A stretch of DNA of 64,000 nucleotides from Bacteroidota bacterium (GTDB lineage: Bacteria > Bacteroidota > Bacteroidia > 2-12-FULL-35-15). The first letter of the stretch is position 1. Each line of letters opens with the position of its first letter. The stretch spans positions 210,599 to 274,598 of the forward strand of contig JAQZBR010000003.1 in NCBI GenBank assembly GCA_029237775.1, written 5' to 3'. Of this stretch, positions 24,482-50,216 are shown piece by piece. Position numbers and translations under genes: made by a program. The notes under the pieces are model-generated. The model searched no databases. It was not told the origin of the DNA and saw only the letters and a list, made by a program, of their open reading frames with translations.

Positions 24482-24645
24482 AAATTTTTAGCAATAAACA
24501 CTATATACAAATATAAGATTTTAGACCAATCTTAGCTGAAATTCAATTTTTTTTCAGACAGCAATTGAACTTAAAAATATGAGCCAGGCGGAACAGGCCC
24601 TGCATGCGAGGCTAGCAGGCTCGCTAGCTTAACTGGCATAAAAAT

Positions 24646-28221: not shown

Positions 28222-28259
28222 AAAAAAGCCCTGACGTTTGAATGTCGGGGCTTTTTTTT
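28222..28259 (-). terminator. Terminator after glyA
   Basis: aaaaaagccctgac / gtcggggctttttt hairpin. Confidence 0.8.
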
Positions 28260-29529
28260 AAGCGAAGAGCGGAAGGGTCTTCATCATTTTATTGACCTCT
28301 TTTTTCACTTCTGCGATAACCTTTTCGTTTTCTGCATTGGTGAGAACTTTATCAATGAGATTAACGATCTTCGGGATCTGCTTTTCCTTGATGCCACGAG
28401 TTGTTATAGCCGAAGTACCCACACGGATCCCCGATGTTACAAATGGTGATTTGTCATCAAAAGGCACCATATTCTTATTTACAGTAATATCAGCTTTCAC
28501 TAAAGTGTTTTCAGCAAGCTTTCCGGAGATGTTCTTTGAACGCAAATCAATCAGCATACAGTGATTGTCTGTTCCACCCGAAATAACTTTATAGCCTTTG
28601 TCCACAAAACATTGCGCCATCAATTTCGCGTTTTTCATTACCTGAATACAGTATTTCATATAGCTGTCTTCAAGTGCTTCACCAAATGCAACTGCTTTTG
28701 CAGCGATCACATGCTCAAGCGGCCCGCCTTGTGTTCCCGGGAATACTGCAGCGTCAAGCATCTGTGACATCATTTTGATCTCGCCTTTCAGTGTTTTTTC
28801 ACCCCATGGATTTTGAAAATCTTTTCCGATCATTATCATTCCTCCGCGAGGCCCACGAAGTGTTTTATGTGTTGTAGTTGTTACTATATGGCAATAAGGC
28901 AAAGGATCATTTAAAAGACCACGTGCAATAAGTCCGGACGGGTGTGAGATGTCTGCCATTAATAAAGCACCGACTTTGTCAGCGATCTTTCTGAATGTTT
29001 TGTAATCCCAATCTCTGGAATATGAAGATGCACCACAAATAATAAGTTTTGGTTTTTCTTTCATTGCGATCTCTTCAACCGTTTTCATATTTACTTTCCC
29101 GGTTTTTTCCTCCACTCCGTAAAAACTTGGTGCATATAGTTTCCCTGAAAAATTTACAGGCGACCCGTGGGTAAGGTGGCCTCCGTGAGAAAGATCAAAT
29201 CCAAGGATCTTGTCTCCGGGTTTTAAAACAGCAAGCATAACTGCTGCATTTGCCTGAGCTCCTGAATGAGGCTGTACATTCACCCATTCGGCATTGAATA
29301 ATTTTTTTGCCCTGTCAATTGCAAGCTGCTCAACTTTATCTACAACCTCACAACCGCCATAATATCTTTTGTTTGGAAGGCCTTCTGCATATTTGTTTGT
29401 AAGTACCGAGCCCATTGCTTTCATTACCTGATCGCTAACGTAGTTCTCAGAGGCAATGAGTTCGATGCCAACAGTCTGACGTTTTTTTTCTTCATTTATC
29501 AGGTCAAAAATTGCGGTGTCTTTTTTCAT
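28258..29529 (-). CDS. glyA: Serine hydroxymethyltransferase
   Basis: [45 protein letters not shown]. Confidence 0.97.
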
Positions 29530-29631: not shown

Positions 29632-30123
29632 CTAATTTACTGTTCTTGTCGGGTCTTTTTCTTTTTCCGCCAGTTTAAATAAAGGAATTAGTATCATCAA
29701 TATTACAGGAGATTGTGCGATGCCCATAAAATATCTGGCAAATTCATACATTTTTGCAGACGTACCGGGAAAAATTACTCCGGTAATGATAAAAAGCGCA
29801 GAGAACAGAGTGATAAAGAGGAAAGCCCAGATGGTGATTTTCTGAAAGAGAGGGGAATTGAAAATTACATTAATAGCATAAAGAGATATCAAAAGGTATA
29901 AGAAGCTAAAGATCATTGTAAATAACCATTTTAGATTCACGATCGTATCATACTCCAGATTTTTAATAAAATCTAGGTAGTATGGCATATCGTAATCCAT
30001 GTCTGCATCCCAGGCTTGCAACAAGGCATTAATGCTTTTAAATGTAGTCTCCCTGAAAAAACCGGTAAAAAGAATCAAAACAAGTATGCAAGAGAAATGA
30101 ATGTATTTGCGGGGAATTCTCAC
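29632..30123 (-). CDS. Exosortase-associated membrane protein (XrtX/XrtF-system type)
   Basis: Multi-TM; FRE..F..IN, KW..T..F, RYFMGIAQSP resemble (from recall) Bacteroidota exosortase-associated proteins. Start moved to GTG 30123 because a TACTTTTG box at 30128-30135 lies inside the longer ORF. Confidence 0.55.
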   Translation of the reverse strand: MRIPRKYIHFSCILVLILFTGFFRETTFKSINALLQAWDADMDYDMPYYLDFIKNLEYDTIVNLKWLFTMIFSFLYLLISLYAINVIFNSPLFQKITIWAFLFITLFSALFIITGVIFPGTSAKMYEFARYFMGIAQSPVILMILIPLFKLAEKEKDPTRTVN

Positions 30124-30287
30124 GTGGCAAAAGTACAAAACCAATGTATTTACGAAACATAAAAACCAATTTTAATTAATCTTACCAAAAGTTTAATTGG
30201 TCGGATTTCACTGGTATATTCTTTAAATTTTTACTATTTTTAACATTTACTAGACGGTGCACAGACCGGTCAAACAATTTTATTCAG

Positions 30288-33200
30288 GTGAACATGATCA
30301 AGAATAGCTACTCACTATTTTTTCTTTTATTTCTTTTTTGCTTCAAAAGCTATTCTGCTACATTCTATTCTCGTTCTAACGGAAGTTGGAATACAGCTTC
30401 CACCTGGTCTACATCTGCATGTGGAAATTCAGCTACCACTTTGATCCCGGGTGCATCTGACGATGTTATTATCTGCGCGGGTTATACAATCACAATGAAC
30501 GGTAATCCAGCCAATTGCAACAAGCTTACATTGAGCGGGACTGCTGACTGGACGTCAGGTTTTGTAATTAATATCGGTGCGGGAGGATTTATAATGAATG
30601 CCGGTTCAAGTATTACTGGTTCCGGTGGACCGAACAGCGGGTCAATTAATGTAGCCGGCAATTTTACAGTTAATACAGGAGGTACTTCAACCCTTCAGAG
30701 AGGAAGTTTGATCGTGAACGGAACCACAAATATTTTCGGGACGTTTTCTATTACTAGTACTTTTGGTACTAAAAGTTTTCAGGACGTTAATATCAACGGG
30801 GGTACCTTTACAAGCGCTGCAACAGAAACCTATACTATTAACGGGAATGTTGTTTTGACAAACGGGACAATCACAGGATCGTCTACCGGGGTTTTCAATA
30901 TTGGCGGAACATTGACTGTTGCTTCCGGTACATCTGTTCTTGGGGCGGGAACAATAAGCGTTACCGGCACAACAACCTTAAATGGAAATTTAAATGAGAA
31001 CAGCGCAAACGGGACGAAAACCTTTTCAAATATTATAATCAATTCAGGGGCGACCTGGAATAATCTTTCTGCAGAAACTTATGCAGTTAGCGGAACCCTT
31101 ACGATGAATGGCGGCACCATTACGGGAACTGCATCCGGCAGATATGATGTCACCGGTGGTTTTGTCGTTGCAAGCGGAACAAATACGTTAGGCAATTCAT
31201 TAATGAATGTTACCGGTCCGACCACCATCAATTCGACTTTGAATATAACAAGTGTTACAGGCACCAAAACTTTTGGAGATGTCACCATATCTTCAACAGG
31301 TAACTGGAACTCCTCTGTCGCTGAAGATTTTACCATCAATGGGAATTTTACTAATAATGGTTCCTTCACTTCCAACACCGGTATCTATACTTTTGCGGGA
31401 ACCGGCAAAACTTTTGGCGGCACAGCATTGTCTTCTTTTGCACGACTCAATAATACGGGTTCATACACGAATGATGGTGTTGTAGAGGTAAATACTATGC
31501 ACTATGGCGCGGGAAGCTTCACTCAGGGAACAACCGGTTCTTATTTTCATAAAATGCTGAGCGCGAATTTCACTGTTACCACATTCAATGCATCTGCTGC
31601 CGGAAATGTAGTTACGTACAATTATGCGGGGGTACAGAATATTCGAAACCCGACCAACCTCCTCGGCTATTATCACCTTACTACAGCGGGTACTGGAATT
31701 AAAACACAGCTAGCAAATACTAGTGTTGGTGGAGATCTAATAATTTCAGCTGCAAGCACCCTGAATCTGGCAACTTTCAGTCTAACTGTCAAAGGAAATT
31801 TTACAAATAATGGCGCATTTACTCCAACAACCGGGGTAAATATAGTTACACTTAGCGGGACTGCTATGCAAACAATCGGGGGGGCTGTGATCACGACATT
31901 CCCAAATCTAACCATCAGCAATGCTACTGGAGTCGGTCTTGCCTTAAATACAGTAATATCTTCTAATCTGAATTTCACTGCCGGTGTTATAACAACAGGA
32001 ACTAATAAGGTTTCTATGACGGCTCTGACTGGAACTGTTACAGGTGCAGGAACATCTAAGTTTGTAAATGGATTTTTTGAAAAAAATATTTCCGCAGGTG
32101 CAGGTGTTATCCGCACTTTCGAAATAGGTAACGGGACCATAAATTATACTCCGGTTACTTTGAATTTTGCGAGTGTTTCAACTGGCGGAACTGTTACAGC
32201 AAGTGTTAGCAATGCGGATCATGCGTCAGTTTCTGCTTCATGCATAGACGAGCTGAAAAGCGTTAATCGTGTATGGACCTTGACCAACTCAGGGACTGTA
32301 TTCTCTACTTATTCTGCTTCATGTACATTTATTGGAGCTACAACTGATGCAGATGCAGGTTCTGTTCCGGCAAATTATTACATGTCTTCTTACAGTGGAG
32401 GTGTCTGGACCTTATTAACAAGAGGGACAGTAAGTTCAACCGTAAATCAGGGAACTGCAATATCAATTTTAGGCGATTTGCAGGTAGGAGAAAGACGAAC
32501 CCCTACTATTCCTGTTCAGCCCGTTGGTGATACCGTATGTAACAATACAAGCGCTGTCTTCTCATTGACTGTGAATGGTGTAGGGCTTAGCTATCAGTGG
32601 CAGCAAAATACCGGAAGCGGCTTTGTCAATCTTGCGAACGGAGGAATTTATTCGGGGGTCACTACAAGTACATTAACGGTCAATCCGGCTGTGAACAGCA
32701 TGAACGGGTATCAGTACCAGTGCGTGATCAGTAATATTTGCGCTACGGCTTTAGTCACTTCGAACGCAGCAACCTTAACCGTAACTCCAAATGTCACCGC
32801 AAGTGTTTCCATCTCAGGAAGTCCGGCCGGGGCAATATGCGCAGGAACGAACGTTACGTTCACAGCGATGCCCGTAAATGGGGGTACAATCCCTGCTTAT
32901 CAATGGCAGGTTAACAATGTAAATACTGGAAGTAATTCTGCTACATTTTCAAGCAGTACGCTCAGTAATGCTGATCAGGTAAAATGCCTGCTAACGTCAA
33001 ACGCGGTTTGTGTGCAGGGAAGTCCGGCAACTTCGAATATTGTAACGATGACAGTGAATCCAAATCTGCCTGTAAGTGTGAACATTATAGCGAGCTCCAC
33101 GGTAATCTGTCCGGGCACCTCAGTTACGTTTACCGCCACACCGGGCAATGGAGGAACAACACCTTCATATCAATGGCTGTTGAACGGTTCAAACGTTGGC

Positions 33201-36200
33201 AGTAATTCACCCAGCTATTCAAATGCAGCACTTGTTAATGGTGATATCGTAACGTGTGTTCTTACTTCTAGTGCGGTTTGTCCTACCGGCTCACCTGCTA
33301 CTTCAAATGCTATAACAATAACAGTAAATCCTTTATTGCCGGTAAGTGTCAGTATTTCAGCAAGTCCTTCGAATATAATCTGTGCAGGAACTAATGTAAC
33401 ATTTACTGCGAGTTCAGTAAATGGTGGAGCGTCACCAACATATCAATGGCAGCTAAATGGCGTAAATACAGGTACTAACAGCTCAACTTACTCAAGTTCA
33501 ACACTTAATACGGGTGATGTTGTGACATGTATTCTTACTTCCGGTGCTACCTGCGCAACAGGCAGTCCGGCCACTTCCAACAGTATAACCATGACTGTGA
33601 ATCCGAATATGCCTTTAAGCGTTTCGATTTCAGCAAGCCCTTCCAATGTTATTTGTTCAGGAGATAACGTATTGTTTACAGCCAATGTAACAAATGGCGG
33701 AGGATACGAATCGTATCAATGGAAACTTAACGGTGTAAATGCCGGGTCGAACTCGCTGACATTCTCTATCAGTTCTCTTGCGAATAATGATGTAGTGACC
33801 TGTGTTGTTTCCACATCAGCACAGTGTGTCACAGGATCGCCTGCAATATCCAACAGTATTGTGATGACTGTGAGTCCGGTCTTACCGGTTAGCGTTTCTG
33901 TTTCAGCTAATCCCTCAAATACAGTTTGTGCTGGGACGAATGTTACTTTCACTGCATCGGGTACTAACGGAGGATCATCACCGGTATACCAATGGTTATT
34001 GAATGGTTCTAACATTGCAACCGGCACAACGTATTCTAATTCTTCACTCGCTAGCGGTGATCAGGTCAGCTGTGTACTGACATCGAATGTTACCTGCTCA
34101 AGTTCCAATCCCGCAACTTCGAATACGATTACAATGACCGTGAATCCTAATATGCCGGTTAGTGTGAGTATTGCTTCCAGTGCTGCCACTTCATGCTCCG
34201 GATCTGCAGTAACATTTACAGCAACACCGGTCAATGGCGGAACAAGCCCATCATACCAATGGCTCCGGAACGGATCGAACACAGGTACAAATTCAGCTAC
34301 GTATATTTCTTCAACTCTCACGAACGGAGATATTATTTCAGTTGTTTTAACCTCGAATGTCGTTTGTCCGACTGGTAATCCGGCAACAAGTAATACAATT
34401 ACTCAGACCGTCACTTCAGGGGGCAGCTGGTTGGGAGCTGTATCAACGGATTGGAATAATACAGGGAACTGGTGCGGAGGAGTTCCTGCTTTGACATCAG
34501 ATGTTACAATCGCAGCGGGATTACCATTCGCGCCTGTTTTAACAGCTACATCGTATTGCAAGAATATTAACATTGCTGCAGGTACAAATCTTACTCTGAA
34601 TGGTAATCTTCTGAATATTTATGGAAGTATTTCAGGAACAGGAATGTTTACGGGAAGCAATTCTTCAGCGATCAACTTGGCGGCAGGAAGCGGCTCCGGA
34701 GGAACGTTGTATATGGATCAATCTGTTGCCGGTACTTCGAATGCACTTGCTGCGATCACTCTGGATCGTTCAGCGGCTTCAATTGTATTAGGAAATACGC
34801 TGGCGGTAACCAACAGTGTGACTGTCACTGCCGGGACACTTTCTTCATCCGGCAATCTTACACTTGTATCAAATGCATCAGGAACCGCAAGAATTTCAAC
34901 ACTTGCAAGCGGTGCCGATGTTTCGGGAAATGTAACTGCCCAGCGATACATTCCGGCAGGGACAGATGGCTGGATGTTCCTTTGTTCTCCTGTTTCAGGC
35001 GCAACACTTCAGCAATGGGATGATGATTTCATCACAGGCGGTTTTCCGGGATCATTCTATCCTCCATCTCCGAACCCATCCATTGTAACTTATGATGAGA
35101 CGGTTTTAGGTTTGTATGATAGCGGTTATGTAGCTCCTTCAGGTATTACCGATGCGATTGCTGCAAGAAAGGGCTATTGGGCGTATATAATGGGAACTCC
35201 TCTGACAATAGACGTTACAGGGCCCATCCTGAAGAATAACCAGACATTCTCTGTTTCTTATACAAACGATGCGACACAAGCCGCAAGTGAGAACGGTTGG
35301 AATCTGGTGGCTAATCCATATCCATCAACCATCGATTGGGATGCAGCAGGCTGGACTAAAACGAATGTGAATGATGCGATCTATATGTATAGCGCAGATC
35401 TGGATCAATATACGAGTTACGTTGGTGGAATAGGAGTGAATGGCGGTACAAACCTGATAGCTTCTTCTCAGGCATTTCTTGTGCAGACAAGTGGAGGGTC
35501 TCCAGTATTAAAATTAAATGAAACGGTGAAGGATGCCACTGACGAGCAATTCATCAGAACACCTGTATCGCCTGATGAATTGATCAGGTTAGGTTTGACC
35601 GGAAATGGATATACAGATGAAACTGTTATTCACTTCAATTCACAAGCGACTGATGGATTTGATCGTTCGTTTGACGCGAGAAAGTTTTTAAGCTTTAATA
35701 CAGATGTTCCAGCCATCGGCTCAATGATAGATAGTGTATTCAGTTCTGTGAACACGTTGCCTTCGATAAGCAATGAACTCGCAATCCCTGTAAAGGTTAA
35801 AGTGGGTGTTACCGGTACATACACTATCCAATTGAATAATACCAGCTGGATGCCTTCAGTAAGCTGTCTGGTCCTGGAAGATCTTAAAACAGGAATACAA
35901 ACCGATCTTCGTTCAACAGCGTCTTATACTTTTAATATTTCTGACACTACGGTATTTCCTCGCTTCGTTATCAGGGTGGGAAAACCAATAGAAACGGTTT
36001 CTAATTCAGCAACCTGCACCGGCAATAACAATGGATCAGCCTGGGCTGTTGGAAATGGGACCGGCCCATGGGATTATACATGGGAAGACCAAAATGGTGT
36101 TCCGGTTCAAACACACAATGGCGTTTCGGGCCCCGATAGCCTGATATCAATGTCACCGGGAAATTATTCGGTTCATATTTCCGGTAATTCAGGTGCCTGC

Positions 36201-36995
36201 AGTGTGCTTGACGCAATGGTTACCATTGGCGCTCATGACACTCTGAATGTGACAGTACAGGTAAGCAATACCGGATGCCTTAATACAGCAGATGGAAGTA
36301 TTGAAGTGATTGATGTAGCAGGAGGAACAGCTCCTTATTCTTATAACTGGTCAAACGGTACCATAACTCCGGTCGATGGTGCTTTAACACCTGGGGTGTA
36401 TGCATTAACAGTCACCGATAGTACCGGCTGTCAATATATAAGTGAATATATTGTCAATTCTGATTCTCACTTATCGGCTGAATATTATGTAAGCAATGAT
36501 ACAGTTAATTTAAGTGATGATGAGGCCGTTGAATTCTCTAATCCGGACAAGGAAATAACTTCCTTCTCCTGGAATTTCGGTGATGGCTCAGCAGTGAATA
36601 ATTCCCCAAATCCAAGCTATTTATATGCTTTGCCGGGCGTATATCAAACTACGCTAATTGTGTCAGATGGGGTTTGTGTAGATACTTCAGCACAGACTGT
36701 AGTTGTGGAGACAGAAGTTTTATCCGTTGGAGTTCAGGAAACTGTAAACGATGAATATCTGAATATTACCATAAATGATGAGGTGGCCGAACTTTATTAT
36801 CAATTTAATGGAGTTTCAGTTGTTGATGTGGAGGTGATGAATGTAACGGGTCAAAAAGTTGTCGCAGATAAGCATCTGGAAAGCGGAAGCGGTAAGCTTT
36901 CCTACAATCTGAAGGGACTTGGTGATGGAATTTACTACTTCCGAATTACCTCCGGAAAAGATAAGGTTATCACAAAACGCGTCATTAAGTTATAG
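30288..36995 (+). CDS. 2235-aa T9SS cargo adhesin-like protein (beta-helix, Ig-like repeats, SprB-like/PKD, type A CTD)
   Basis: Signal peptide, NGSWNTASTW start, T/G/N-rich repeats, six Ig-like repeats, GGTAPYSYNWSNG (SprB-like), WNFGDG (PKD), C-terminal GIYYFRI...KRVIK. Confidence 0.88.
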   Translation: MNMIKNSYSLFFLLFLFCFKSYSATFYSRSNGSWNTASTWSTSACGNSATTLIPGASDDVIICAGYTITMNGNPANCNKLTLSGTADWTSGFVINIGAGGFIMNAGSSITGSGGPNSGSINVAGNFTVNTGGTSTLQRGSLIVNGTTNIFGTFSITSTFGTKSFQDVNINGGTFTSAATETYTINGNVVLTNGTITGSSTGVFNIGGTLTVASGTSVLGAGTISVTGTTTLNGNLNENSANGTKTFSNIIINSGATWNNLSAETYAVSGTLTMNGGTITGTASGRYDVTGGFVVASGTNTLGNSLMNVTGPTTINSTLNITSVTGTKTFGDVTISSTGNWNSSVAEDFTINGNFTNNGSFTSNTGIYTFAGTGKTFGGTALSSFARLNNTGSYTNDGVVEVNTMHYGAGSFTQGTTGSYFHKMLSANFTVTTFNASAAGNVVTYNYAGVQNIRNPTNLLGYYHLTTAGTGIKTQLANTSVGGDLIISAASTLNLATFSLTVKGNFTNNGAFTPTTGVNIVTLSGTAMQTIGGAVITTFPNLTISNATGVGLALNTVISSNLNFTAGVITTGTNKVSMTALTGTVTGAGTSKFVNGFFEKNISAGAGVIRTFEIGNGTINYTPVTLNFASVSTGGTVTASVSNADHASVSASCIDELKSVNRVWTLTNSGTVFSTYSASCTFIGATTDADAGSVPANYYMSSYSGGVWTLLTRGTVSSTVNQGTAISILGDLQVGERRTPTIPVQPVGDTVCNNTSAVFSLTVNGVGLSYQWQQNTGSGFVNLANGGIYSGVTTSTLTVNPAVNSMNGYQYQCVISNICATALVTSNAATLTVTPNVTASVSISGSPAGAICAGTNVTFTAMPVNGGTIPAYQWQVNNVNTGSNSATFSSSTLSNADQVKCLLTSNAVCVQGSPATSNIVTMTVNPNLPVSVNIIASSTVICPGTSVTFTATPGNGGTTPSYQWLLNGSNVGSNSPSYSNAALVNGDIVTCVLTSSAVCPTGSPATSNAITITVNPLLPVSVSISASPSNIICAGTNVTFTASSVNGGASPTYQWQLNGVNTGTNSSTYSSSTLNTGDVVTCILTSGATCATGSPATSNSITMTVNPNMPLSVSISASPSNVICSGDNVLFTANVTNGGGYESYQWKLNGVNAGSNSLTFSISSLANNDVVTCVVSTSAQCVTGSPAISNSIVMTVSPVLPVSVSVSANPSNTVCAGTNVTFTASGTNGGSSPVYQWLLNGSNIATGTTYSNSSLASGDQVSCVLTSNVTCSSSNPATSNTITMTVNPNMPVSVSIASSAATSCSGSAVTFTATPVNGGTSPSYQWLRNGSNTGTNSATYISSTLTNGDIISVVLTSNVVCPTGNPATSNTITQTVTSGGSWLGAVSTDWNNTGNWCGGVPALTSDVTIAAGLPFAPVLTATSYCKNINIAAGTNLTLNGNLLNIYGSISGTGMFTGSNSSAINLAAGSGSGGTLYMDQSVAGTSNALAAITLDRSAASIVLGNTLAVTNSVTVTAGTLSSSGNLTLVSNASGTARISTLASGADVSGNVTAQRYIPAGTDGWMFLCSPVSGATLQQWDDDFITGGFPGSFYPPSPNPSIVTYDETVLGLYDSGYVAPSGITDAIAARKGYWAYIMGTPLTIDVTGPILKNNQTFSVSYTNDATQAASENGWNLVANPYPSTIDWDAAGWTKTNVNDAIYMYSADLDQYTSYVGGIGVNGGTNLIASSQAFLVQTSGGSPVLKLNETVKDATDEQFIRTPVSPDELIRLGLTGNGYTDETVIHFNSQATDGFDRSFDARKFLSFNTDVPAIGSMIDSVFSSVNTLPSISNELAIPVKVKVGVTGTYTIQLNNTSWMPSVSCLVLEDLKTGIQTDLRSTASYTFNISDTTVFPRFVIRVGKPIETVSNSATCTGNNNGSAWAVGNGTGPWDYTWEDQNGVPVQTHNGVSGPDSLISMSPGNYSVHISGNSGACSVLDAMVTIGAHDTLNVTVQVSNTGCLNTADGSIEVIDVAGGTAPYSYNWSNGTITPVDGALTPGVYALTVTDSTGCQYISEYIVNSDSHLSAEYYVSNDTVNLSDDEAVEFSNPDKEITSFSWNFGDGSAVNNSPNPSYLYALPGVYQTTLIVSDGVCVDTSAQTVVVETEVLSVGVQETVNDEYLNITINDEVAELYYQFNGVSVVDVEVMNVTGQKVVADKHLESGSGKLSYNLKGLGDGIYYFRITSGKDKVITKRVIKL
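32790..34415 (+). repeat. Six tandem ~90-aa Ig-like repeats
   Basis: Consensus VSVSISASP...ICxGTNVTFTA..xNGG..PxYQWxLNG.N.G....Y....LxxGDxVxCxLTS...CxxGxPATSNxITxTVNP, counted six times. Confidence 0.9.
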
Positions 36996-37535
36996 CTACT
37001 TGCGGGGAGAAGAGGGAGAAAGTGTTTTGTCACTTATTTTGTTTGTCCAGAGCATCCATAAAAAGAATATAAAGCCATAGATAATTATTGTAAAGGTGTA
37101 AGTATGGTTGAATTCAGTCCAGGTTCTGGAATGCGTATCAAGGATAGCAAGGAAAACCACCCTAAGAATATTCAGTATTTCAATCATTAAGATCCCGAGG
37201 GGAATGAAATACAACTTTTTTTTCCAGTTACCCGGATAAGCAATAATAAAACCCGTAAAAAGGGAAAAAAGTGCTATACCGTTACAGTTATCCCCAATCC
37301 ATAAGCCCCCGGTTCCATCGATACCGATTAGTCTGTCGGATCCCGTGAAAACAGTATATCCTAATCCTTCAAGTATCCATTTGCTTACCGCGACAGTTTT
37401 ATCAATCACAAAAAGATCCATTGTTTTGGCAGGATGTAGCCAGAGATTATATAACAGATACCATCCAAGATAGAAGCCTAGAATAGAAAGAAGAAACCGT
37501 ATGATAGGGTTTTGAAGAAAAGACAGCTTTTGCAT
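36996..37535 (-). CDS. Exosortase family transpeptidase (XrtX/XrtF-like, Bacteroidota type)
   Basis: Multi-TM with the exosortase Cys-Arg-His triad: IGDNCNG, NILRV, FNHTYTF. Confidence 0.85.
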   Translation of the reverse strand: MQKLSFLQNPIIRFLLSILGFYLGWYLLYNLWLHPAKTMDLFVIDKTVAVSKWILEGLGYTVFTGSDRLIGIDGTGGLWIGDNCNGIALFSLFTGFIIAYPGNWKKKLYFIPLGILMIEILNILRVVFLAILDTHSRTWTEFNHTYTFTIIIYGFIFFLWMLWTNKISDKTLSPSSPRK

Positions 37536-37541
37536 AAGGAC

Positions 37542-37573
37542 AAAAAAAATCCCGTTTTAAGCGGGATTTTTTT
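37542..37573 (-). terminator. Terminator between the PID-CTERM-like gene and the exosortase
   Basis: aaaaaaaatcccg / cgggattttttt hairpin overlapping the stop codon at 37557. Confidence 0.75.
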
Positions 37574-37799
37574 TAAGTGAACTGTAGATTTTATATCCTC
37601 CAAAGGCCATTCCGGCAATAAGGAGTAGTATTACACTGCTATCCAATGGTATCGGGCATGGCGGGAATGGTCCACCACAAGGGTTTGGAGGCCCCATACC
37701 CATACCTGTTCCCATACCGAGGGCGGCAGCTTTTGAAACTGTTGCCAGATAAGGAGCAGTAAAAATAAGAACAGTTAAAAATATTTTTTTAAATTTCAT
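37557..37799 (-). CDS. 80-aa PID-CTERM-like exosortase substrate
   Basis: Signal peptide, short Gly/Met/Pro linker, then PIPLD motif + TM helix (SSVILLLIAGMAFGGY) + basic tail (KIYSSLKK); directly upstream of the exosortase. Confidence 0.78.
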   Translation of the reverse strand: MKFKKIFLTVLIFTAPYLATVSKAAALGMGTGMGMGPPNPCGGPFPPCPIPLDSSVILLLIAGMAFGGYKIYSSLKKNPA

Positions 37800-37816: not shown

Positions 37817-37824
37817 CAAATTTA
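37817..37824 (-). promoter_or_regulatory. -7 promoter box (TAAATTTG) for the PID-CTERM-like gene
   Basis: Exact TAnnTTTG on - strand, 17 nt before the ATG. Confidence 0.65.
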
Positions 37825-37843: not shown

Positions 37844-40243
37844 CTACTTTCTTACGTATTTTTTAGTGATCAAACCTTTTGAAGACTCAATCTTAACAAT
37901 GTACATACCTGAGAAATCCTGAGGCAAGTTGAGGTTTACAGTCTGATTTTCTGCTAAGACAGTGGTGGTTTCAACGATATTCTGTCCCATGATGTTAGTA
38001 ACGTTAATAGTAGCAGGGGTTGCCTCTTCCATGTCGAATGTTACAGTGTTACCATCAACAGTTGGTAGAATGCTCACTTGATTATTTAACTCAGAATTCA
38101 TATCGCTGTTAACAAAAGCTCTGCAGTTACCAGATTTTGTAAGGTGAAGAATAAATCTGTCTGACGCTTCGTTTGTATTCAATTCGAAAGAATAAGCTTC
38201 CCCTTTTGTAAGGTCGATAGTTTTGTTCAACACTTTATCCTCAAGGGTAATGCACGAATATTCACTAACATTCTCCAAGCCGGCAGCTTCAATTTTATAA
38301 AAGCCTTGTTTCGCCACAGACACTGAAACCGGCATTGAGAAATTATCATCAAAAGAATTGAATGAGTTAATAACCGCTTTTCTTCCGTCAATTTTAGTGT
38401 AAATTGAAGGGGCAAGTGGGTTAGGGCTTTTATGGAAAGGATGATCATTCGAATCCCAACCGTCTGATGCTGTATTGTTACCGGCTACTTTTAAAGTGTG
38501 ATAGAAAGAGTTTCCTGCATCATTAGCTGAGAATTTCAGGCTCAGGTAAGGCTCAGCAACTACGGATCTCAAAGAGCTGTTTGAAGAGGTGGATTTTGAG
38601 CTTTCAGGAATAATCAAGGTAGCTGTGGAGGTGGTTGTATACACCCAGAAACCTTGAGTTGAACCGATCTCAGTACCTAAACCAAAGGTTGCATAATTCC
38701 CTGAAGCAGCATCAAATACATCATAAGTGTTTAAAATTCCGCTGGAAGCTGTAAACACATCACTCCATCTGATACTTGATGCAAAAGGGTTTCCGACAAG
38801 ATTAGAACCGGCACTGTTAAAAGAGATCAACCCGCTTAGATCCTGATCAGTCTGATTAGGTACACCAATCGTATTGATTGTGGTGTTTGGGAGATTACTG
38901 TATGAAAAGTCTCCGGTCATATACACTTCAAATCCCTGTCCCGGTGTTAAAGCCGTTGCTGATGAAGTGATTGCGCTGAATGCATCTTCAGTTTCATCAT
39001 AGATCCATTGTGTTGGATATGAAGATGGTGGGCTGAAAGTATAGTAAGTTACCGGCAATTCATTATCCCAGTCATTGAAAGTTGAATTCTGAACAGGAGA
39101 AGAAAGATCCGCCCAGGTGCTGTCGCGGGAAGTGATAAAACGCTCCACGGTAAAGTTTCCTGCAATAGCTCCTGTTCCGGTTATAGGTGCAATGCGGGCA
39201 GTTTGAGTCGCGTCAGAGGTCATCGTAAATGAACGTCCACCGGTGTTAAATGTTCCGTTGCTTACAGTTATAACCTCATCAAGTATATAAGTTCCGGATG
39301 TTAAAGTAACTCCATTAGTATTATTGATTGTCAAACCTTTAAAAGTGGTAGTGCCAAATGTATTCGATACAGACTGGGCAGCAGTACCGTTAAAGGTAAC
39401 TGTCTTGCCTGCTGAAGCGGTAAAAGTGGCCGCGTTGGTCCAGTTTCCAGCTACGGAAAGATCGAAATTATTGGTATTGAGGTGATTCCCGGCATTCATT
39501 GTTAGATTATTCGCAATCACGGTATTCGCAGCGAGTGTTTTAGTGCCTGACGTAGATGCAGTAAGAGATAAGTTATAATATCCTGAAGAGGCAAGAGGAA
39601 CCGCTCCGGCAGCATATCTTAAGTTAACGGTGTTGCCGGTTGCATGAGCGTGAAATGTAGCGCCACTCATAAATCCGGCTTTAAGAAGAGATAATGTAGC
39701 GCCAGCAGAATTAACGAAGACAGATCCGGATTTACCGATAAAGTCGGAGAATGTGCAGATACCAAGGTTCGTTAACGTTTTATTAACAGCCAGGGTTATA
39801 ATTCCTCCCGCTGCTTTTGTTAAAGTGGATCCGGCCTGAACAGTCGCATTGTTAGAAAAAGAATATCTGCTTGTAGGAGATGAAGTACCGGTAATAGTAA
39901 GCGAAATGTTGGTTGCAATGAATAAAATTGTTCCGCTGCCAGTTTCAGTACCTGAAAGATTATAATTGCCACGTACCGACATTGTATTGCTGATCAACTG
40001 TAAGGTTCCGGCAACAGTCAGATTTCTCGCTGCACAGCCTGTTGCGTTAACAAAAACGGTGTGTCCGGCAGAAATTGTTACATCATCCGAGCTGGTCGGC
40101 ACGCCATTAGGTATCCAAGTGGTGCTCGAGAGCCAACTTGATGGTCCCGTACCAGCGGAAGTGTAACTAATGGCAGACACCTGGACTGCAAGACAGGTAA
40201 AAAGTGCAAAAAAACTGAGTTTGATTAAGTTAAAGTGTTTCAT
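37844..40243 (-). CDS. T9SS cargo surface protein, paralogous to part of the 2235-aa protein
   Basis: Signal peptide; TARI...G...GN.T..R.I....W..L.SPV and NLV.NP..S.I.W shared with 30288-36995; CTD-like end SGMYIVKI...ITKK. Confidence 0.82.
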   Translation of the reverse strand: MKHFNLIKLSFFALFTCLAVQVSAISYTSAGTGPSSWLSSTTWIPNGVPTSSDDVTISAGHTVFVNATGCAARNLTVAGTLQLISNTMSVRGNYNLSGTETGSGTILFIATNISLTITGTSSPTSRYSFSNNATVQAGSTLTKAAGGIITLAVNKTLTNLGICTFSDFIGKSGSVFVNSAGATLSLLKAGFMSGATFHAHATGNTVNLRYAAGAVPLASSGYYNLSLTASTSGTKTLAANTVIANNLTMNAGNHLNTNNFDLSVAGNWTNAATFTASAGKTVTFNGTAAQSVSNTFGTTTFKGLTINNTNGVTLTSGTYILDEVITVSNGTFNTGGRSFTMTSDATQTARIAPITGTGAIAGNFTVERFITSRDSTWADLSSPVQNSTFNDWDNELPVTYYTFSPPSSYPTQWIYDETEDAFSAITSSATALTPGQGFEVYMTGDFSYSNLPNTTINTIGVPNQTDQDLSGLISFNSAGSNLVGNPFASSIRWSDVFTASSGILNTYDVFDAASGNYATFGLGTEIGSTQGFWVYTTTSTATLIIPESSKSTSSNSSLRSVVAEPYLSLKFSANDAGNSFYHTLKVAGNNTASDGWDSNDHPFHKSPNPLAPSIYTKIDGRKAVINSFNSFDDNFSMPVSVSVAKQGFYKIEAAGLENVSEYSCITLEDKVLNKTIDLTKGEAYSFELNTNEASDRFILHLTKSGNCRAFVNSDMNSELNNQVSILPTVDGNTVTFDMEEATPATINVTNIMGQNIVETTTVLAENQTVNLNLPQDFSGMYIVKIESSKGLITKKYVRK

Positions 40244-40460
40244 GATATAATTTAAATTTTTCGTAAAGATATCTTCTTTAGAACTTTAAAAAATTACAAA
40301 AGGCGCTAGGAAGTTCCAAATGTAAGGAAAATTCTTTTTTTGTCAAACCTTTATTCCTATTCCTTTACGGAATATTATCTAATTAGTTACATTCTTTAAT
40401 TAAGGACAGATTTTACCTTCAGGATTATTCCTATATTTGGAAGATTTTTTTACCATTTTT

Positions 40461-42842
40461 ATGCCAGACAAAAAGAAAACAAATTTAATTGAACTTGAGG
40501 ATTTTCGTTCCACGTTTAAAATATTTTTAAAAAACTGGTACATTTTGCTGGCTTTCCTTCTGGCAGCTTCCATTCTATCATATTTTTACACGTATAAATT
40601 ACCGAATGTTTATGCGGCAAAAACTCAGATTCTCCTTAAAAATCAGGAAACTTATGATTATCAGAATCAGATCTATAAAGGTATTGGATATTACCAGTCT
40701 TATCAGGACAATGCTAATCAGATCAGGGTTTTAACTTCAAATGACCTGATTTCAGAAGCGCTCACAAAATTAAAATTTGAGGTTTCCTATTTTATAGTAG
40801 GCAGGCTGAAAACTACTGAGGTGTATGAGGGCGTTCCCTTTGATATTGCTGTCACAAGTGTAAATCAGAATCTATATGAGAAAGATATTCATTTCAAAAT
40901 AGTTAATGAAAAGCAATTCGAGCTTTCATATTTAAAGGGCGGGGATAATGTGGTAAAAAAGTATGATTTCAATAAAGAGATTATTAATGAGGATTTTTTC
41001 ATCACTGTTAAAAAAAATCAGATTCTTAATGAAAAAACGGTTACAAGTCTAAAAGAAATAGATTATCAATTAAAAATCCACAAGCTAGACTATTTGATTT
41101 CCAAAATTAAAAATCTTTTACAGGTGGATAATGTTGAAAATACCACCATTTTGGAACTTACTCTTCAGGATGAAATCCCCCTTCGGGCGATCACTTTTTT
41201 AGACACTTTATCCAATTCTTATATTAATTACACCTCCCGGAATCAAATAGCCATTAATAATAATACTTTAGAAAATATTGATAAACAGTTAAAAGAAATT
41301 ACTGAGGTACTCACTTCCATTGAAGATGATATGGAGAACTACAGGGCCAACAAGGCAATTCTCGATATAGATAAACAGCAGGAAGATTATTTTAATAAAT
41401 TAATTGAATTTGACTCTCAGAAGCGCCAGGCAGAATTAACAATTCAATCCCTGGAGGCCCTCCAAAAATATATAATTTCAGTTGGAAACTTAACAGACGA
41501 GAAATTGCTACCTCCGTCATTTTATATCTCTCAGGGCGATGATTATTTAAGAACAGCTTTAGGGAAGTTGTATGAGCTACAAATGGACCGAAATCAAAGG
41601 TTAAATGGTTCGACCATACAGAACCGAAATATTAGCGAATTGGATGAGGAGCTTGGGTTGTTAAAGAATAATATTTTGACCTATATAACCAATTCTAAAA
41701 CAGGTTTACACCAAAGGATTGAAGATTTAAAAGGTCAGATCAATCACTATACAGGTATTATCAAAACAGTTCCCCGAACAGAAAGGGATCTGTTAAACAT
41801 CCAGAGAAAGCTGGATGTTAACCAAAAAATGTATTCTTTTTTGCTTGAAAAAAGAGCTAGTACCATGATCGCGCGCGCGGGGATATTGCCCGAAACAAGT
41901 GTGATCGAATCAGCTCACTCAATAGGTGTAGTTGCTCCGAATAAGCGGAAGATCATGTATTACTTTTTAATTGCAGGCACAATCCTCAGTTTGATTGTTG
42001 TTTTTATAAGGACCAATATGTTTTCAACTATTGAAAATGTTATGGAATTAAAACGAATTTCTACCTTACCTGTATTAGGCGAAATAATTTTTCATTCCAG
42101 TGAAAATGAAAGTTATTTTATTGTAGATAAGGATTCAAAGGCTCCGATCACTGAAAGTTTCAGGGCAATCCGTACTAATCTTGAGTATTTTGCAAGTGAC
42201 CGAAAATCTAAGGTGGTGCTATTGACCTCTTACCTTCCGGGCGAAGGAAAAACTTTTTGTTCAGTTAATCTTGCTACTATTCTCGCAAAAGCCGGTAAAA
42301 AAGTTTTGCTGTTAGAGCTTGATCTCCATAAGCCGAAAGTTCAAAAAGCCTTTAATATGGAATCTCTGGTAGGGGCCAGTAATATACTTATCGGAAAGGC
42401 TGCCATTCCATCAACCATTCAGGAGACAGGTATCGAGAATTTATTTGTAATGTTATCCGGCCCGACCCCGCCTAATGCTTCCGAGCTCATTTTAAGCCCA
42501 CATCTTTCGGAAATTTTCGACTATGGGCGCGACCATTTTGACTATGTTATCGTAGATACGCCACCGATCGGTTTAATTACTGATGCCCTTGTGATGATGA
42601 AAAATGCGGATGTGTCACTCTTTGTACTGAATACGAAATTTGCAAAAAAACAAATCATCGGAATTGTTGAAGAACTCGTAGAGCAGAACAAATTCAAAAA
42701 TTTCGCTATGATTCTCAATGGCGTGAAACGTAAAAAATCAGGGTATTATTACAATTACGGATACGGTTATGGCTACGGTTACGGCTATGGAAACGGTTAC
42801 GGCTATGGATCATATGGCAAGCCCGAACCAAAGAAAAAATAA
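40461..42842 (+). CDS. wzc: Polysaccharide co-polymerase / BY-kinase (Wzc/GumC family)
   Basis: Two TMs around a coiled-coil periplasmic domain, Walker A TSYLPGEGKT, IVDTPP, C-terminal Tyr cluster. Start moved to ATG 40461 (TATATTTG box at 40432-40439). Confidence 0.9.
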   Translation: MPDKKKTNLIELEDFRSTFKIFLKNWYILLAFLLAASILSYFYTYKLPNVYAAKTQILLKNQETYDYQNQIYKGIGYYQSYQDNANQIRVLTSNDLISEALTKLKFEVSYFIVGRLKTTEVYEGVPFDIAVTSVNQNLYEKDIHFKIVNEKQFELSYLKGGDNVVKKYDFNKEIINEDFFITVKKNQILNEKTVTSLKEIDYQLKIHKLDYLISKIKNLLQVDNVENTTILELTLQDEIPLRAITFLDTLSNSYINYTSRNQIAINNNTLENIDKQLKEITEVLTSIEDDMENYRANKAILDIDKQQEDYFNKLIEFDSQKRQAELTIQSLEALQKYIISVGNLTDEKLLPPSFYISQGDDYLRTALGKLYELQMDRNQRLNGSTIQNRNISELDEELGLLKNNILTYITNSKTGLHQRIEDLKGQINHYTGIIKTVPRTERDLLNIQRKLDVNQKMYSFLLEKRASTMIARAGILPETSVIESAHSIGVVAPNKRKIMYYFLIAGTILSLIVVFIRTNMFSTIENVMELKRISTLPVLGEIIFHSSENESYFIVDKDSKAPITESFRAIRTNLEYFASDRKSKVVLLTSYLPGEGKTFCSVNLATILAKAGKKVLLLELDLHKPKVQKAFNMESLVGASNILIGKAAIPSTIQETGIENLFVMLSGPTPPNASELILSPHLSEIFDYGRDHFDYVIVDTPPIGLITDALVMMKNADVSLFVLNTKFAKKQIIGIVEELVEQNKFKNFAMILNGVKRKKSGYYYNYGYGYGYGYGYGNGYGYGSYGKPEPKKK

Positions 42843-42866
42843 TCTTTAAAAAAGTTTAAATTTTTC

Positions 42867-43433
42867 ATGAGAAAAAAATTTAAAGATCTTCTCAACCTGT
42901 TAAAACTTAAATTCAGAAAATCGACTTATTCAGGCAAGGTTTTTTGTATTGGTTATAATAAAACAGGAACAACATCTTGCGGAAGAGCATTCGAGCTTCT
43001 CGGTTATAAGAATGTTTCCTTCGAAGGCAAGAACTGGCGCGGTCTGTATAAGAACAAACAATATTTGCAGCTGCTTAATTATGCAGCGAAGTTTGATTCA
43101 TTTGATGACCTTCCGTGGTTAAAGGAGGACATGATTGTTTTATTGGATAAAGTATTTCCGAACAGCAAATTTGTTTATTTAGAAAGAGACCTGGATTCGT
43201 GGCGGAAATCTTATTATAATTGGACTTATAAAATTACGGGCCAATACCCTGACATGGAAAAAGGCGTTTCTAATTTTCTCGCCCACCGGGAATTTGTAAT
43301 GCAATATTTTAAAGACAGGCAAAATGATCTTCTTATAATGAAGATTTCGGAACCGGGAGGGTTTAAAAAACTTGCTGAATTTCTTGGAAAAAAGACAGAT
43401 CAGACCGAAATGCCGCATGAAAATAAAACGTAA
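42867..43433 (+). CDS. Sulfotransferase family protein (Sulfotransfer_4-like)
   Basis: KVFCIG.NKTGTTS PAPS-binding loop, FDD.PW, FV.LER...SW..S. Confidence 0.75.
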   Translation: MRKKFKDLLNLLKLKFRKSTYSGKVFCIGYNKTGTTSCGRAFELLGYKNVSFEGKNWRGLYKNKQYLQLLNYAAKFDSFDDLPWLKEDMIVLLDKVFPNSKFVYLERDLDSWRKSYYNWTYKITGQYPDMEKGVSNFLAHREFVMQYFKDRQNDLLIMKISEPGGFKKLAEFLGKKTDQTEMPHENKT

Positions 43434-43457
43434 AATATTTAATCTTTTCAATAAAAA

Positions 43458-44309
43458 ATGTCAGATAAAAACGAAGAATGGGACCTTATTGTTAAGCCTA
43501 AAAATTCAATATTTAATGTCGATCTACAATCTTTCTGGCATTACCGGGATCTGTTGCTTTTATTTGTCAAGAGGGACTTTATAGCAGTATACAAACAAAC
43601 TGTTCTGGGACCATTGTGGTATATCATACAGCCACTGCTTACAACTTTTATGTTTACTGTGATTTTTGGCCAGATCGCAAAGATACCCACCGATGGAATA
43701 CCTAAGATCTTATTTTATCTCTCCGGAGTAACAATGTGGACCTATTTTGCTGAATGCTTAAATAAAACATCCAACACATTTATTTCCAACTCCACAATTT
43801 TCGGTAAGGTTTATTTTCCAAGACTAATTGTTCCTGTGTCCATCATCATCAGTAATCTTATTACGTTTGCTGTACAGTTTCTTCTTTTTATTCTGGTTCT
43901 TTTGTACTATTTCAGTACCACAGACCTGATTCACCCTAATATTTATATTCTGCTTCTGCCTCTTCTGATCCTTATAATGGCCGGCACAGGATTGGGGTTA
44001 GGGATAATAATCTCATCTTTAACAACAAAATATCGTGACCTTCGCTTTCTGATAGCTTTTGGGGTTCAGTTGTTTATGTTCGCCACACCGGTTATCTATC
44101 CAATGTCTTTTTTATCCGCTAAACAGAAAGTATTCATGATGGCTAACCCATTGTCGGCCATAATGGAAACCTTCAGATTCGCATTTACAGGTGTAGGAGT
44201 ATTTAACTGGATGCATTTATTATATAGTTTTATCTGCATGTTAATACTTTTATTTATTGGAATAATACTTTTCAATAAAGTGGAAAAAACATTTATGGAT
44301 ACAGTTTAA
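43458..44309 (+). CDS. wzm: ABC-2 polysaccharide exporter permease
   Basis: YRDLL..FVKRD....YKQT.LG..W..IQPL, KVYFPR, YRDL.F, TPVIYP, NPL. Confidence 0.9.
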   Translation: MSDKNEEWDLIVKPKNSIFNVDLQSFWHYRDLLLLFVKRDFIAVYKQTVLGPLWYIIQPLLTTFMFTVIFGQIAKIPTDGIPKILFYLSGVTMWTYFAECLNKTSNTFISNSTIFGKVYFPRLIVPVSIIISNLITFAVQFLLFILVLLYYFSTTDLIHPNIYILLLPLLILIMAGTGLGLGIIISSLTTKYRDLRFLIAFGVQLFMFATPVIYPMSFLSAKQKVFMMANPLSAIMETFRFAFTGVGVFNWMHLLYSFICMLILLFIGIILFNKVEKTFMDTV

Positions 44310-44333
44310 TATTATATCAAAATTTGAGTTGAA

Positions 44334-45593
44334 GTGAAAGTTGTTATAAAAGTTGAAAATATAAGTAAAAGGTATAACCTGGGTGAGGTTGGAACTGGCA
44401 CGCTTTCCCGTGACATAAATGCCTGGTGGGCCAGAATGAAAGGAAAAGAAAACCCCAATCTAAAGGTTACGGAAACTGAGAAGTCAGGTTACGAAAATAC
44501 TTTTCATCAGGCTTTGTCCAACATATCCTTTAATGTGAATGAAGGAGATGTTTTAGGTATAATCGGAAAAAACGGAGCAGGTAAATCAACGTTACTAAAA
44601 ATTCTTTCCCGTGTTACAACGCCATCTTCAGGGCAATTTAAAGTTAAGGGAAGAATAGCCAGTTTGCTTGAAGTGGGAACCGGTTTCCATCCTGATCTTA
44701 CCGGTCGCGAGAATGTTTTCCTCAATGGGGCGATTCTTGGAATGAGAAAATCCGAAATCAGAAGTAAATTCGATGAGATAATTGAGTTTTCTGGTGTGGA
44801 AAAGTTTATTGATACTCCGGTGAAAAGATACTCATCCGGGATGTATGTTCGCCTTGCCTTTGCTGTCGCAGCACATTTGGAGCCCGAAATACTTATTGTT
44901 GATGAAGTGCTTGCAGTGGGTGATCTGGAGTTTCAAAAAAAGTGCCTTGGCAAAATGAAAGATGTTTCAGAACAGGGAAGAACTGTTTTGTTTGTGAGCC
45001 ATAATATGAATGCTATGCAGCAGCTATGCAGCAGAGGAATTCTCATTTCTAAAGGCTCACTGGAGATGGATGCTGACATAAACACCGTGGTAAATCATTA
45101 TATAGGATTAGCAAAGACGGGCGCAGCTAACATCAGTGAATTTGCAAGACGCGGGAATAAAGCAATTTCCTTTACTGATTTTTATATTACCGATTCAGGG
45201 CTGAATAAAGTGGACAGGGTAATGATGAAAGATGATCTTTTTGTTAATTTGTTAATGAAAGCAAAAGAAGAGGTCAGACAATTAGATGTTTCATTTACCA
45301 TCAGAAATGCTTTTGGTGAAGCAATAACGCATGTGCAAAATATGGATAACGATTTTATCATTCCGGTAAATCAGGAAGATTATTTTTTCAGGATCAGGTT
45401 AAAGGATATTCTTTTTGTGCCCGGGACATATTTTATATCTATCTGGGCCGGAAATAGCACAGAGGCTTACGATTGCATCGATAATTGCATGAGTTTCGAA
45501 GTACTTAACAATCCGGATTTAAACCGTTTAATTTACCCGCATAATATCAGGGTATTTCAAAATTCGCAGTGGGAGATCGCAGCCGGTGCTTAA
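44334..45593 (+). CDS. wzt: ABC polysaccharide exporter ATPase with Wzt C-terminal domain
   Basis: GKNGAGKST, YSSGMYVRLAF, VDEVLAVGD, VSH; beta-rich C-terminal extension. Confidence 0.9.
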   Translation: MKVVIKVENISKRYNLGEVGTGTLSRDINAWWARMKGKENPNLKVTETEKSGYENTFHQALSNISFNVNEGDVLGIIGKNGAGKSTLLKILSRVTTPSSGQFKVKGRIASLLEVGTGFHPDLTGRENVFLNGAILGMRKSEIRSKFDEIIEFSGVEKFIDTPVKRYSSGMYVRLAFAVAAHLEPEILIVDEVLAVGDLEFQKKCLGKMKDVSEQGRTVLFVSHNMNAMQQLCSRGILISKGSLEMDADINTVVNHYIGLAKTGAANISEFARRGNKAISFTDFYITDSGLNKVDRVMMKDDLFVNLLMKAKEEVRQLDVSFTIRNAFGEAITHVQNMDNDFIIPVNQEDYFFRIRLKDILFVPGTYFISIWAGNSTEAYDCIDNCMSFEVLNNPDLNRLIYPHNIRVFQNSQWEIAAGA

Positions 45594-50211: not shown

Positions 50212-50216
50212 GACCT

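Follow-up and report, generated by a model that had tools for sequence, protein, structure and literature searches.

Why a dedicated sorting enzyme should be kept for a peptide stub is the question raised by a cargo-less protein family, one member of which is encoded in a 64,000-nucleotide (nt) stretch of a Bacteroidota bacterium (assembly GCA_029237775.1, contig JAQZBR010000003.1, positions 210,599 to 274,598), called the window in the following. At 37557..37799 on the minus strand it carries an open reading frame (ORF) with an ATG start that encodes 80 amino acids (aa) plus stop, referred to here as the mini-gene. The gene of an exosortase X (XrtX, 179 aa, 36996..37535, minus strand), the predicted processing enzyme, starts 21 nt downstream on the same strand. 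Our analysis shows the ORF to be a true gene and makes it quite probable that its product is a 'headless' sorted protein, a predicted PID-CTERM protein serving as the dedicated one-to-one substrate of the adjacent XrtX. That the mini-protein is a substrate of XrtX at all is held with slightly greater confidence. For covalent anchoring of the putative product the chances appear about even.

The translation of the ORF, composed of MKFKKIFLTVLIFTAPYLATVSKA, AALGMGTGMGMGPPNPCGGPFPPCP, and IPLDSSVILLLIAGMAFGGYKIYSSLKKNPA in this order, corresponds exactly to the tripartite peptide of 80 residues that had been described in an earlier note made from the sequence alone. Residues 1-24 (37728..37799, minus strand) form a Sec-type signal peptide with the segments MKFKK, a hydrophobic core, and VSKA. 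A signal peptidase I cut after Ala24 is predicted by the -3/-1 rule (Ser, Ala) as read from the sequence. Ala24 is conserved in at least 90% of the orthologs, which commonly show the pattern [ST]x[AG] before and [AV]GMG after this position. The predicted mature peptide AALGMGTGMGMGPPNPCGGPFPPCP covers residues 25-49 (37653..37727, minus strand) and would comprise 29 aa if the motif I-P-L-D were kept. It consists of a Gly/Met spacer, which varies in length among the orthologs, followed by an invariant P-C-G-G-P-F-P-P-C. The Cys41-x6-Cys48 loop in this part, CGGPFPPC (37656..37679, minus strand), probably forms a periplasmic disulfide. Residues 50-80 (37560..37652, minus strand) represent the PID-CTERM sorting signal at the extreme C-terminus, with I-P-L-D at 50-53, the transmembrane helix SSVILLLIAGMAFGGYKIY, and the basic tail SLKKNPA.

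The sorting signal was recognized by the NCBIfam model PID_CTERM (NF046080), which matches residues 51-72 of the mini-protein with an E-value of 1.2e-5 and 25.0 bits versus a curated cutoff of 26. The orthologs P0002 and P0090 are above this cutoff with 30.8 and 31.2 bits, respectively. Many homologs also carry the Pfam label PF28310 (PID_CTERM), as taken from precomputed annotations. In an AlphaFold2 model based on an alignment of 51 sequences, helices were predicted at residues 3-25, the N-terminal hydrophobic helix, and at 54-77, the latter including the two Lys residues 76-77. No secondary structure was predicted at 26-53, and the predicted local distance difference test score is below 50 at residues 24-36. 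According to this model the mature part has no fold. The earlier statement that the product is too small for an enzyme or a folded adhesin is upheld. A lipoprotein identity was rejected, as there is no lipobox Cys.

The mini-gene is conserved together with its neighbor. A scan of one genome per species yielded 34 XrtX loci, all from metagenome-assembled genomes of Bacteroidota, whose enzymes share 39-78% identity with that of the window. An ortholog of 71-83 aa is located immediately upstream of xrtX in all 34 related loci. These ORFs end 18-94 nt (median about 30) before the enzyme gene; in L030 the start codon is TTG. A reverse search of metagenome contigs starting from the mini-protein gave 16 further loci, and XrtX is encoded directly downstream in all 15 of those that include downstream sequence. 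Among 30 close orthologs, Pro40, Cys41, Gly42, Pro46, Pro47, Cys48, Pro51, and Leu52 are invariant, and Gly43 and Asp53 differ in one locus each. Conserved residues use most of the synonymous codons in this set, all six in the case of Leu52. Since the core residues are fixed while synonymous codons vary freely, the mini-protein is under purifying selection at the protein level, and a chance ORF at this position is ruled out by conservation.

Sequencing data from public runs provided some information on expression. The window sequence was present in one run only, a soil DNA metagenome. The orthologous mini-ORF is represented in metatranscriptome contigs of two freshwater relatives, L009 and L025. 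In L025, contigs of 100% identity reach position 5929; the mini-ORF ends at 5922, and a hairpin described below is located there. No contig on xrtX was found in L009 or L025 among these low-depth assemblies. We regard the metatranscriptome contigs as suggestive of mini-gene expression, not as proof.

The enzyme was assigned by the XrtX model NF046081, the best-scoring exosortase subfamily model, with 193.1 bits at a cutoff of 170. An XrtF identity was rejected, as the model TIGR04128, second in score among the exosortase models, reached 84.2 bits and is thus under its cutoff of 90; the XrtY model gave 80 bits, also below its own cutoff. W-I-G-D-N-C84-N-G, Arg125, and Asn143-His144 of XrtX are invariant among 30 orthologs, the most distant of which has 39% identity, with one exception at most. 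For exosortases and archaeosortases, a catalytic triad of Cys, Arg, and His has been proposed (Haft 2023, 10.1101/2023.06.07.544157). No homolog of XrtX was obtained from the PDB by sequence search. In public data, the gene of the window enzyme has been called with 141 aa only (P0249), beginning at an internal Met; the 179-aa form is backed by a hidden Markov model (HMM) match to residues 9-170 and by orthologs of 170-180 aa. The clade is labeled 'XrtF' by JGI, where an older model set is used, and 'exosortase X' by NCBI. The link between PID-CTERM signals and a Bacteroidota XrtX, which the earlier note had mentioned, is correct: it is represented by NF046080 and NF046081 as well as by PF28310, and xrtX adjoins the mini-gene.

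How many targets the enzyme has was assessed with a clade HMM built from the C-terminal parts of 114 mini-proteins, which was run on all six-frame ORFs of the window and the 34 loci (399 kb). Exactly one PID-CTERM ORF was found per locus, with no second candidate; the next best match had an E-value of 0.16. Furthermore, the motif co-varies with the enzyme. CP[IV]PLD occurs with XrtX proteins that are at least 61% identical to that of the window, and C[IV]PIDGG occurs with those of a Flavobacteriales clade at 39-49% identity. A sorting system has been termed 'dedicated' if a one-to-one relation exists between enzyme and target encoded by consecutive genes (Haft 2023, 10.1101/2023.06.07.544157). 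The mini-gene/xrtX pair appears to fit this definition, with a single adjacent target per locus in the 399 kb covered. The proposal of a minimal exosortase substrate is supported by the HMM match, the tripartite architecture, the strict adjacency to XrtX, the co-variation of motif and enzyme, and a family restricted to mini-proteins.

This restriction became apparent in database searches. A word-indexed search resulted in 89 homologs of the mini-protein, all of 48-89 aa. With an HMMER profile search of 1.84 billion representatives, 269 clusters were obtained (E <= 1e-3). Among the 150 best of these, a length of 50-117 aa was found in 147 cases. No large protein with a PID-CTERM tail was among the best 150, a result for which it has to be considered that a 25-residue tail alone would fall below the significance of the search. 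P0096 and P0117 were rejected as large PID-CTERM proteins since they are low-complexity matches, and P0209 was rejected since its match at the N-terminus is due to a fusion or a mis-called gene. The median length from motif to end is 31 aa in 227 family members. The segment that follows the hydrophobic region and precedes the motif has a median of 22 aa, with 30% Pro and 17.5% Gly. Thus, the mature part across the family is a Pro/Gly-rich stub of roughly 15-30 residues. Conservation is confined to the sorting signal, and the exported part is not conserved. With a generic stub as cargo and conservation in the sorting signal only, the point of the system is probably a small anchored peptide or a transfer reaction, not the delivery of a domain.

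The Cys pattern gives a further hint to the properties of the exported peptide. C-x(4-9)-C-x(0-1)-[IV]P[ILV][DN] is found in all 113 unique homologs of the window clade. About 40% of the wider family lack Cys, an example being QGPPPPPPPPPAVPLDGG, and distant members have QPP or GGPPP spacers. Cys-less Pro-rich members score highest on NF046080 (40-45 bits); the window clade reaches 25-31 bits. Cys counts in the mature parts of 133 family representatives were zero in 53 cases, two in 67, and even in 125. Exported proteins with disulfide pairs typically show even counts, so that the disulfide suggested in the earlier note gains indirect support and a bridge between Cys41 and Cys48 is probable as judged from the sequence. 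The Cys pair is invariant in the clade; the Gly-Met repeat varies in length and is not conserved family-wide. Both are clade-specific features, which argues against a special role of the GMG repeat or the Cys loop in the family as a whole.

Signals for transcription are located at both ends of the mini-gene. The mini-gene is separated from the upstream gene by 44 nt. Within this gap, a Bacteroidota sigma-A -7 box, TAAATTTG (37817..37824, minus strand), starts 25 nt upstream of the ATG. The consensus of this element is TAnnTTTG (PMC9723704). It was found within 45 nt of the mini-gene start in 25 out of 35 loci, compared to 1.1 expected from shuffled sequences and a maximum of 6 in 2000 shuffles. 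At the other end, an intrinsic-terminator-like hairpin (37541..37575, minus strand) has a predicted stem of 14 base pairs, a 7-nt loop, and a U-run inside its 3' arm. Codons K76-A80 and the stop codon are part of it, and the ATG of xrtX follows at a distance of about 5 nt. Its 5' arm is AAA AAA AAT CCC GCT TAA (K76-K77-N78-P79-A80-stop) and its 3' arm is CGGGAUUUUUUUU. The predicted fold has -15 kcal/mol (z = -4.0), and none out of 200 shuffles was as stable.

A hairpin over or just past the stop codon is predicted in nearly all loci, and the pairing is kept in all 28 loci scored. The third base of the K77 codon forms A-U in 12, G-C in 9, and G-U in 7 of these, and never A-C. The only CCT Pro codon in the hairpin arm is matched by AGG, representing a compensatory swap. 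Codons in the arm are frozen, with AAA for K76 in 29/30, AAT for N78 in 29/30, CCC for P79 in 29/30, and GCT for A80 in 24/25 sequences. At the other Pro columns of the mini-gene, CCC is the rarest or second-rarest Pro codon. Because these codons are frozen at the nucleotide level within a covarying hairpin, the KKNPA tail is under a double constraint, since it serves as a basic tail in the protein and as a stem in the RNA. The distant loci L036 and L037 contain an unrelated hairpin, AAGACCGAUUAAUCGGUCUUUUUUUU, at the same stop-overlapping position. With the ATG of xrtX only about 5 nt away, no room is left for an xrtX promoter after the terminator, and transcripts of xrtX are therefore expected to start at a promoter within the mini-ORF or to result from read-through.

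These features are compatible with the following course of events. The mini-gene would be transcribed from its own sigma-A promoter, and most transcripts would end at the hairpin over the last codons. If xrtX were expressed only by one of the two routes mentioned, the mini-protein would be made in large excess over XrtX, as expected for a substrate; this stoichiometry is inferred from the arrangement of the signals. The precursor would be exported by the Sec pathway and cut by signal peptidase I after Ala24, and its C-terminal helix would tether it in the inner membrane with the KK tail inside. A disulfide between Cys41 and Cys48, to which the Cys parity points, may then close across the Pro-rich loop. 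XrtX, with Cys84, Arg125, and His144, is predicted to cleave at or beside I-P-L-D, whereby Cys84 would attack and the transmembrane helix and tail would be released. If XrtX acts like archaeosortase A, the C-terminus newly formed on the Gly/Met/Pro peptide of about 25-29 residues may be passed to an acceptor in the envelope. Candidate acceptors would be a membrane lipid or the glycan of the neighboring Wzm/Wzt/Wzc locus.

A more far-reaching and clearly tentative idea is that XrtX constitutes a peptide-transfer system instead of an ordinary protein-sorting enzyme. The sole role of the abundant mini-protein would then be to donate a short Pro/Gly-rich, sometimes disulfide-looped peptide to a non-protein acceptor, either a membrane lipid or the polysaccharide that the adjacent Wzm/Wzt/Wzc machinery exports. 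If true, this would define a new class of Bacteroidota envelope peptidolipid or peptide-capped glycan, and the same logic might also account for the substrate-less XrtF. Exosortases are widespread, yet the biochemistry of what they attach to what is almost blank. The XrtX pair offers the simplest test system, with a compact enzyme and a product of about 25 residues suited to top-down mass spectrometry, which makes the cleavage site, the question of transpeptidase versus hydrolase, and the identity of the acceptor directly testable.

Several points weigh against the mini-protein as a dedicated XrtX substrate. A literature search found no paper on PID-CTERM or XrtX, and hence no demonstrated cleavage, anchoring, or acceptor. 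Whether exosortase-type enzymes are transpeptidases or proteases is unsettled even for archaeosortase A (10.1101/2023.06.07.544157). The mini-protein of the window falls 1 bit short of the PID_CTERM cutoff, and the count of one target per enzyme covers 399 kb of locus sequence, so that further PID-CTERM proteins may be encoded elsewhere in the genome. A scan with a consensus terminator model did not call the hairpin at 37541..37575, which can be explained by the U-run itself being paired with the upstream A-run. The RNA evidence consists of low-depth assembled contigs of relatives, from which termination is not provable and in which DNA carry-over is possible. Finally, no exosortase was found in the 0.5-10 kb flanks of four weakly PID-like orphan mini-proteins (L039, L040, L044, and L045).

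Among the alternative explanations, the one that best withstands the evidence, though it is unlikely, regards the mini-protein as an uncleaved small membrane subunit or regulator of an XrtX complex, for example a pseudo-substrate gating the enzyme or positioning it for another target. This would be in agreement with the concentration of family conservation in the motif and the transmembrane helix (LL.AAG.AYGGKK.Y) instead of the exported part, with the essential lack of cargo, and with the strict adjacency to XrtX or to the XrtX-associated membrane protein. Moreover, a membrane protein acts as partner of the related XrtF, for which no substrate is known (PMC10936215, PMC12188702). However, such a partner role is already filled in the XrtX system by the separate associated membrane protein, and the mini-protein has the architecture of a cleavable signal peptide followed by the standard tripartite sorting signal at the very C-terminus. 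A promoter of its own and a terminator before xrtX suggest a large excess, unlike a 1:1 subunit, and no other candidate PID-CTERM target was found in the 399 kb.

Less probable still is a precursor of a released RiPP-like (ribosomally synthesized and post-translationally modified peptide) or signaling peptide, with XrtX as a hydrolase that frees a disulfide-looped peptide of about 25 residues to the periplasm or the medium. Whether exosortases transfer or merely cut is unresolved (10.1101/2023.06.07.544157), and the small gene as well as the order of precursor, terminator, and enzyme resemble many peptide operons. The invariant Cys pair of the window clade would suit a looped peptide, but the mature part of the family is a low-complexity Pro/Gly sequence of variable length and composition that is Cys-less in about 40% of the members, unlike a specific bioactive core. 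Neither a radical-SAM, YcaO, Lan-type, or other tailoring enzyme nor a peptide exporter is encoded in the conserved neighborhood, and the RiPP-like option of the earlier note is not supported for the same reason. The glycan attachment scaffold considered there was rejected for O- and N-glycans alike because of a mature part that is almost without Ser and Thr and contains no Asn sequon. A surface binder of Cu(I) or a similar soft metal, specific to the window clade and recalling the Met-rich motifs used by periplasmic copper proteins, is very improbable in spite of the GMGMGMG runs and two thiols within a 25-residue peptide. Met repeats occur in the window clade only; in relatives both close and distant, GGG, TGG, or PPP spacers take their place. 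A scan of about 35 window ORFs (15.7-58.2 kb) revealed no gene for metal handling, and the even Cys parity favors a disulfide over free thiols.

The preferred interpretation, a dedicated XrtX substrate, places the locus in a known type of system. The curated PID-CTERM/XrtX system (NF046080, NF046081, NF046082; PF28310) shares with the window its three components, two of which are matched below their cutoffs, the signal architecture, the adjacency, and the Bacteroidota hosts. Hence, the system is already modeled by NCBIfam and Pfam and is not of a new kind; the window clade is a divergent sub-threshold subtype. It differs from the curated signal in having the motif C-P-[IV]-P-L-D instead of P-I-D-G-G, and additionally in the Gly-Met repeats and the invariant CGGPFPPC loop. 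Some homologs are named 'PID-CTERM protein-sorting domain-containing protein' and 'exosortase X' by NCBI. Mini-proteins of the window clade, including that of the window, are mostly annotated as 'hypothetical protein'. New, as far as we found, are the restriction of the family to mini-proteins, the even-Cys pattern, the promoter with a stop-overlapping covarying terminator, and the synteny with T9SS (type IX secretion system), Wzc, and glyA genes. The order of a small precursor gene with high expression, a leaky hairpin, and the gene of the processing enzyme is seen in lantibiotic and pilin operons. The mini-gene and xrtX resemble this layout without homology to these operons, and their predicted terminator makes use of the five final codons together with the stop codon.

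The third component, an XrtX-associated membrane protein of 170 aa (29632..30144, minus strand), was matched by NF046082 with an E-value of 8.5e-17 and 61 bits, below the cutoff of 75. Its gene directly follows xrtX in L006, L012, L020, L029, L030, and L058. In the window it is 6.8 kb away from xrtX, which together with the score below the cutoff distinguishes the locus from the curated system. The two genes are separated, in the window and its nearest relatives, by an insertion of about 6.7 kb on the opposite strand, a gene encoding a protein of 2235 aa (30288-36995, plus strand) whose stop codon abuts that of xrtX without a gap. This protein is related to the T9SS-sorted 799-aa protein encoded next to the mini-gene (tblastn, 26-28% identity), the N-terminal part being paralogous. 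Judging from its sequence, it is presumably T9SS-sorted itself.

The PEP-CTERM/exosortase A system (EpsH) of Proteobacteria and other groups is based on a homologous enzyme family (PF09721); its model TIGR04178 gives 57 bits on the window XrtX. It likewise combines a motif, a transmembrane helix, and a basic tail and is associated with polysaccharide export loci including a Wzc-type kinase (10.1101/2023.06.07.544157). In contrast to exosortase A, which has many diverse and often large targets per genome, the XrtX of the window has one target per locus with virtually no cargo. XrtX proteins are compact with about 175 aa, and the motif is P-[IL]-D instead of the P-E-P of exosortase A systems. 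XrtF and the 'exosortase F system-associated protein' (Fjoh_1448/1449 of Flavobacterium johnsoniae) are likewise found in Bacteroidota and combine a compact enzyme with a small partner in the membrane. XrtF is needed to form biofilms and to colonize surfaces, and its substrates are still unknown (PMC10936215, PMC12188702). Unlike XrtF, its closest relative among the enzymes studied so far, XrtX has an obvious adjacent candidate substrate. A search for true XrtF loci gave only XrtX-type enzymes among the 120 homologs listed.

Biochemical data on the enzyme superfamily are limited to archaeosortase A, which is required both to remove the C-terminal helix of the PGF-CTERM S-layer glycoprotein of Haloferax volcanii and to attach a lipid to it (10.1101/2023.06.07.544157). 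Its conserved Cys, Arg, and His correspond to those of XrtX, and it served as the mechanistic template for our proposal. It differs in being archaeal, in its large glycoprotein substrate, and in its distant sequence relation (33 bits on the window XrtX).

The gene order around the pair is syntenic across the loci. Wzt, Wzm, in part a sulfotransferase, and Wzc are encoded on one strand, and divergent from the Wzc block are the T9SS-sorted 799-aa gene, the mini-gene, xrtX, in part the associated membrane protein gene, and glyA. In the window, the upstream neighbor (37844..40243, minus strand) encodes the secreted protein of 799 aa with a T9SS type A C-terminal sorting domain (TIGR04183, E-value 1.1e-10), and a homolog is located directly upstream of the mini-gene in most loci. 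A T9SS cargo gene is also found upstream in the distant loci L036 (1-3961) and L042 (2-610), encoding a different protein, which is of the DUF8202 type in L036. Surface attachment by the T9SS may be functionally linked to the XrtX product. The mini-protein as acceptor amine for the attachment of T9SS cargo by PorU is an attractive idea in view of the T9SS gene upstream but was rejected, since the mature part of many members starts with Gln. Bacteroidota are known to cyclize N-terminal Gln.

The divergently transcribed polysaccharide export block (40437..45593, plus strand) is composed of a Wzc-type tyrosine autokinase (40437-42842), a sulfotransferase (42867-43433), Wzm (43458-44309), and Wzt with a Wzt_C domain (44334-45593), all on the plus strand. 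In L031 and L032, Wzc directly abuts the mini-gene/xrtX pair. The C-terminus of the Wzc-like kinase (42738-42818, plus strand) is an unusually regular Tyr-Gly repeat, SGYYYNYGYGYGYGYGYGNGYGYGSYG, presumably a C-terminal autophosphorylation cluster. A cluster downstream of Wzm/Wzt (48772-55788, minus strand) encodes two DltB-like MBOAT acyltransferases (48772-50211 and 54328-55788), an FkbH-domain protein (51573-53336), an SDR protein (50217-50939), and a MaoC dehydratase (50936-51352), which suggests acyl or glyceryl decoration of an exported polymer.

The serine hydroxymethyltransferase gene glyA (28258-29529, minus strand) shows conserved synteny with the XrtX system in Bacteroidia as well as in Flavobacteriales. 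In L036 (4708-5982) and L037 it is located between the associated membrane protein gene and xrtX in the same orientation. The orphan mini-proteins mentioned above (L039:4707-4949, L040:1578-1820, L044:10001-10234, and L045:10001-10231) have about 75-80 aa with a signal peptide, a Pro-rich spacer, PPG[LMF]-P-I-D-[DEN], a transmembrane helix, and a basic tail, and score 15-22 bits on PID_CTERM. Their genes are convergent with the riboflavin synthase gene ribE in a housekeeping context, and they could be candidate XrtF substrates. Further downstream on the minus strand (17940-26706), the window contains four tandem genes for PD40 proteins (TolB-like beta-propeller), some with TPR, CarboxypepD_reg, and OmpA-like domains.

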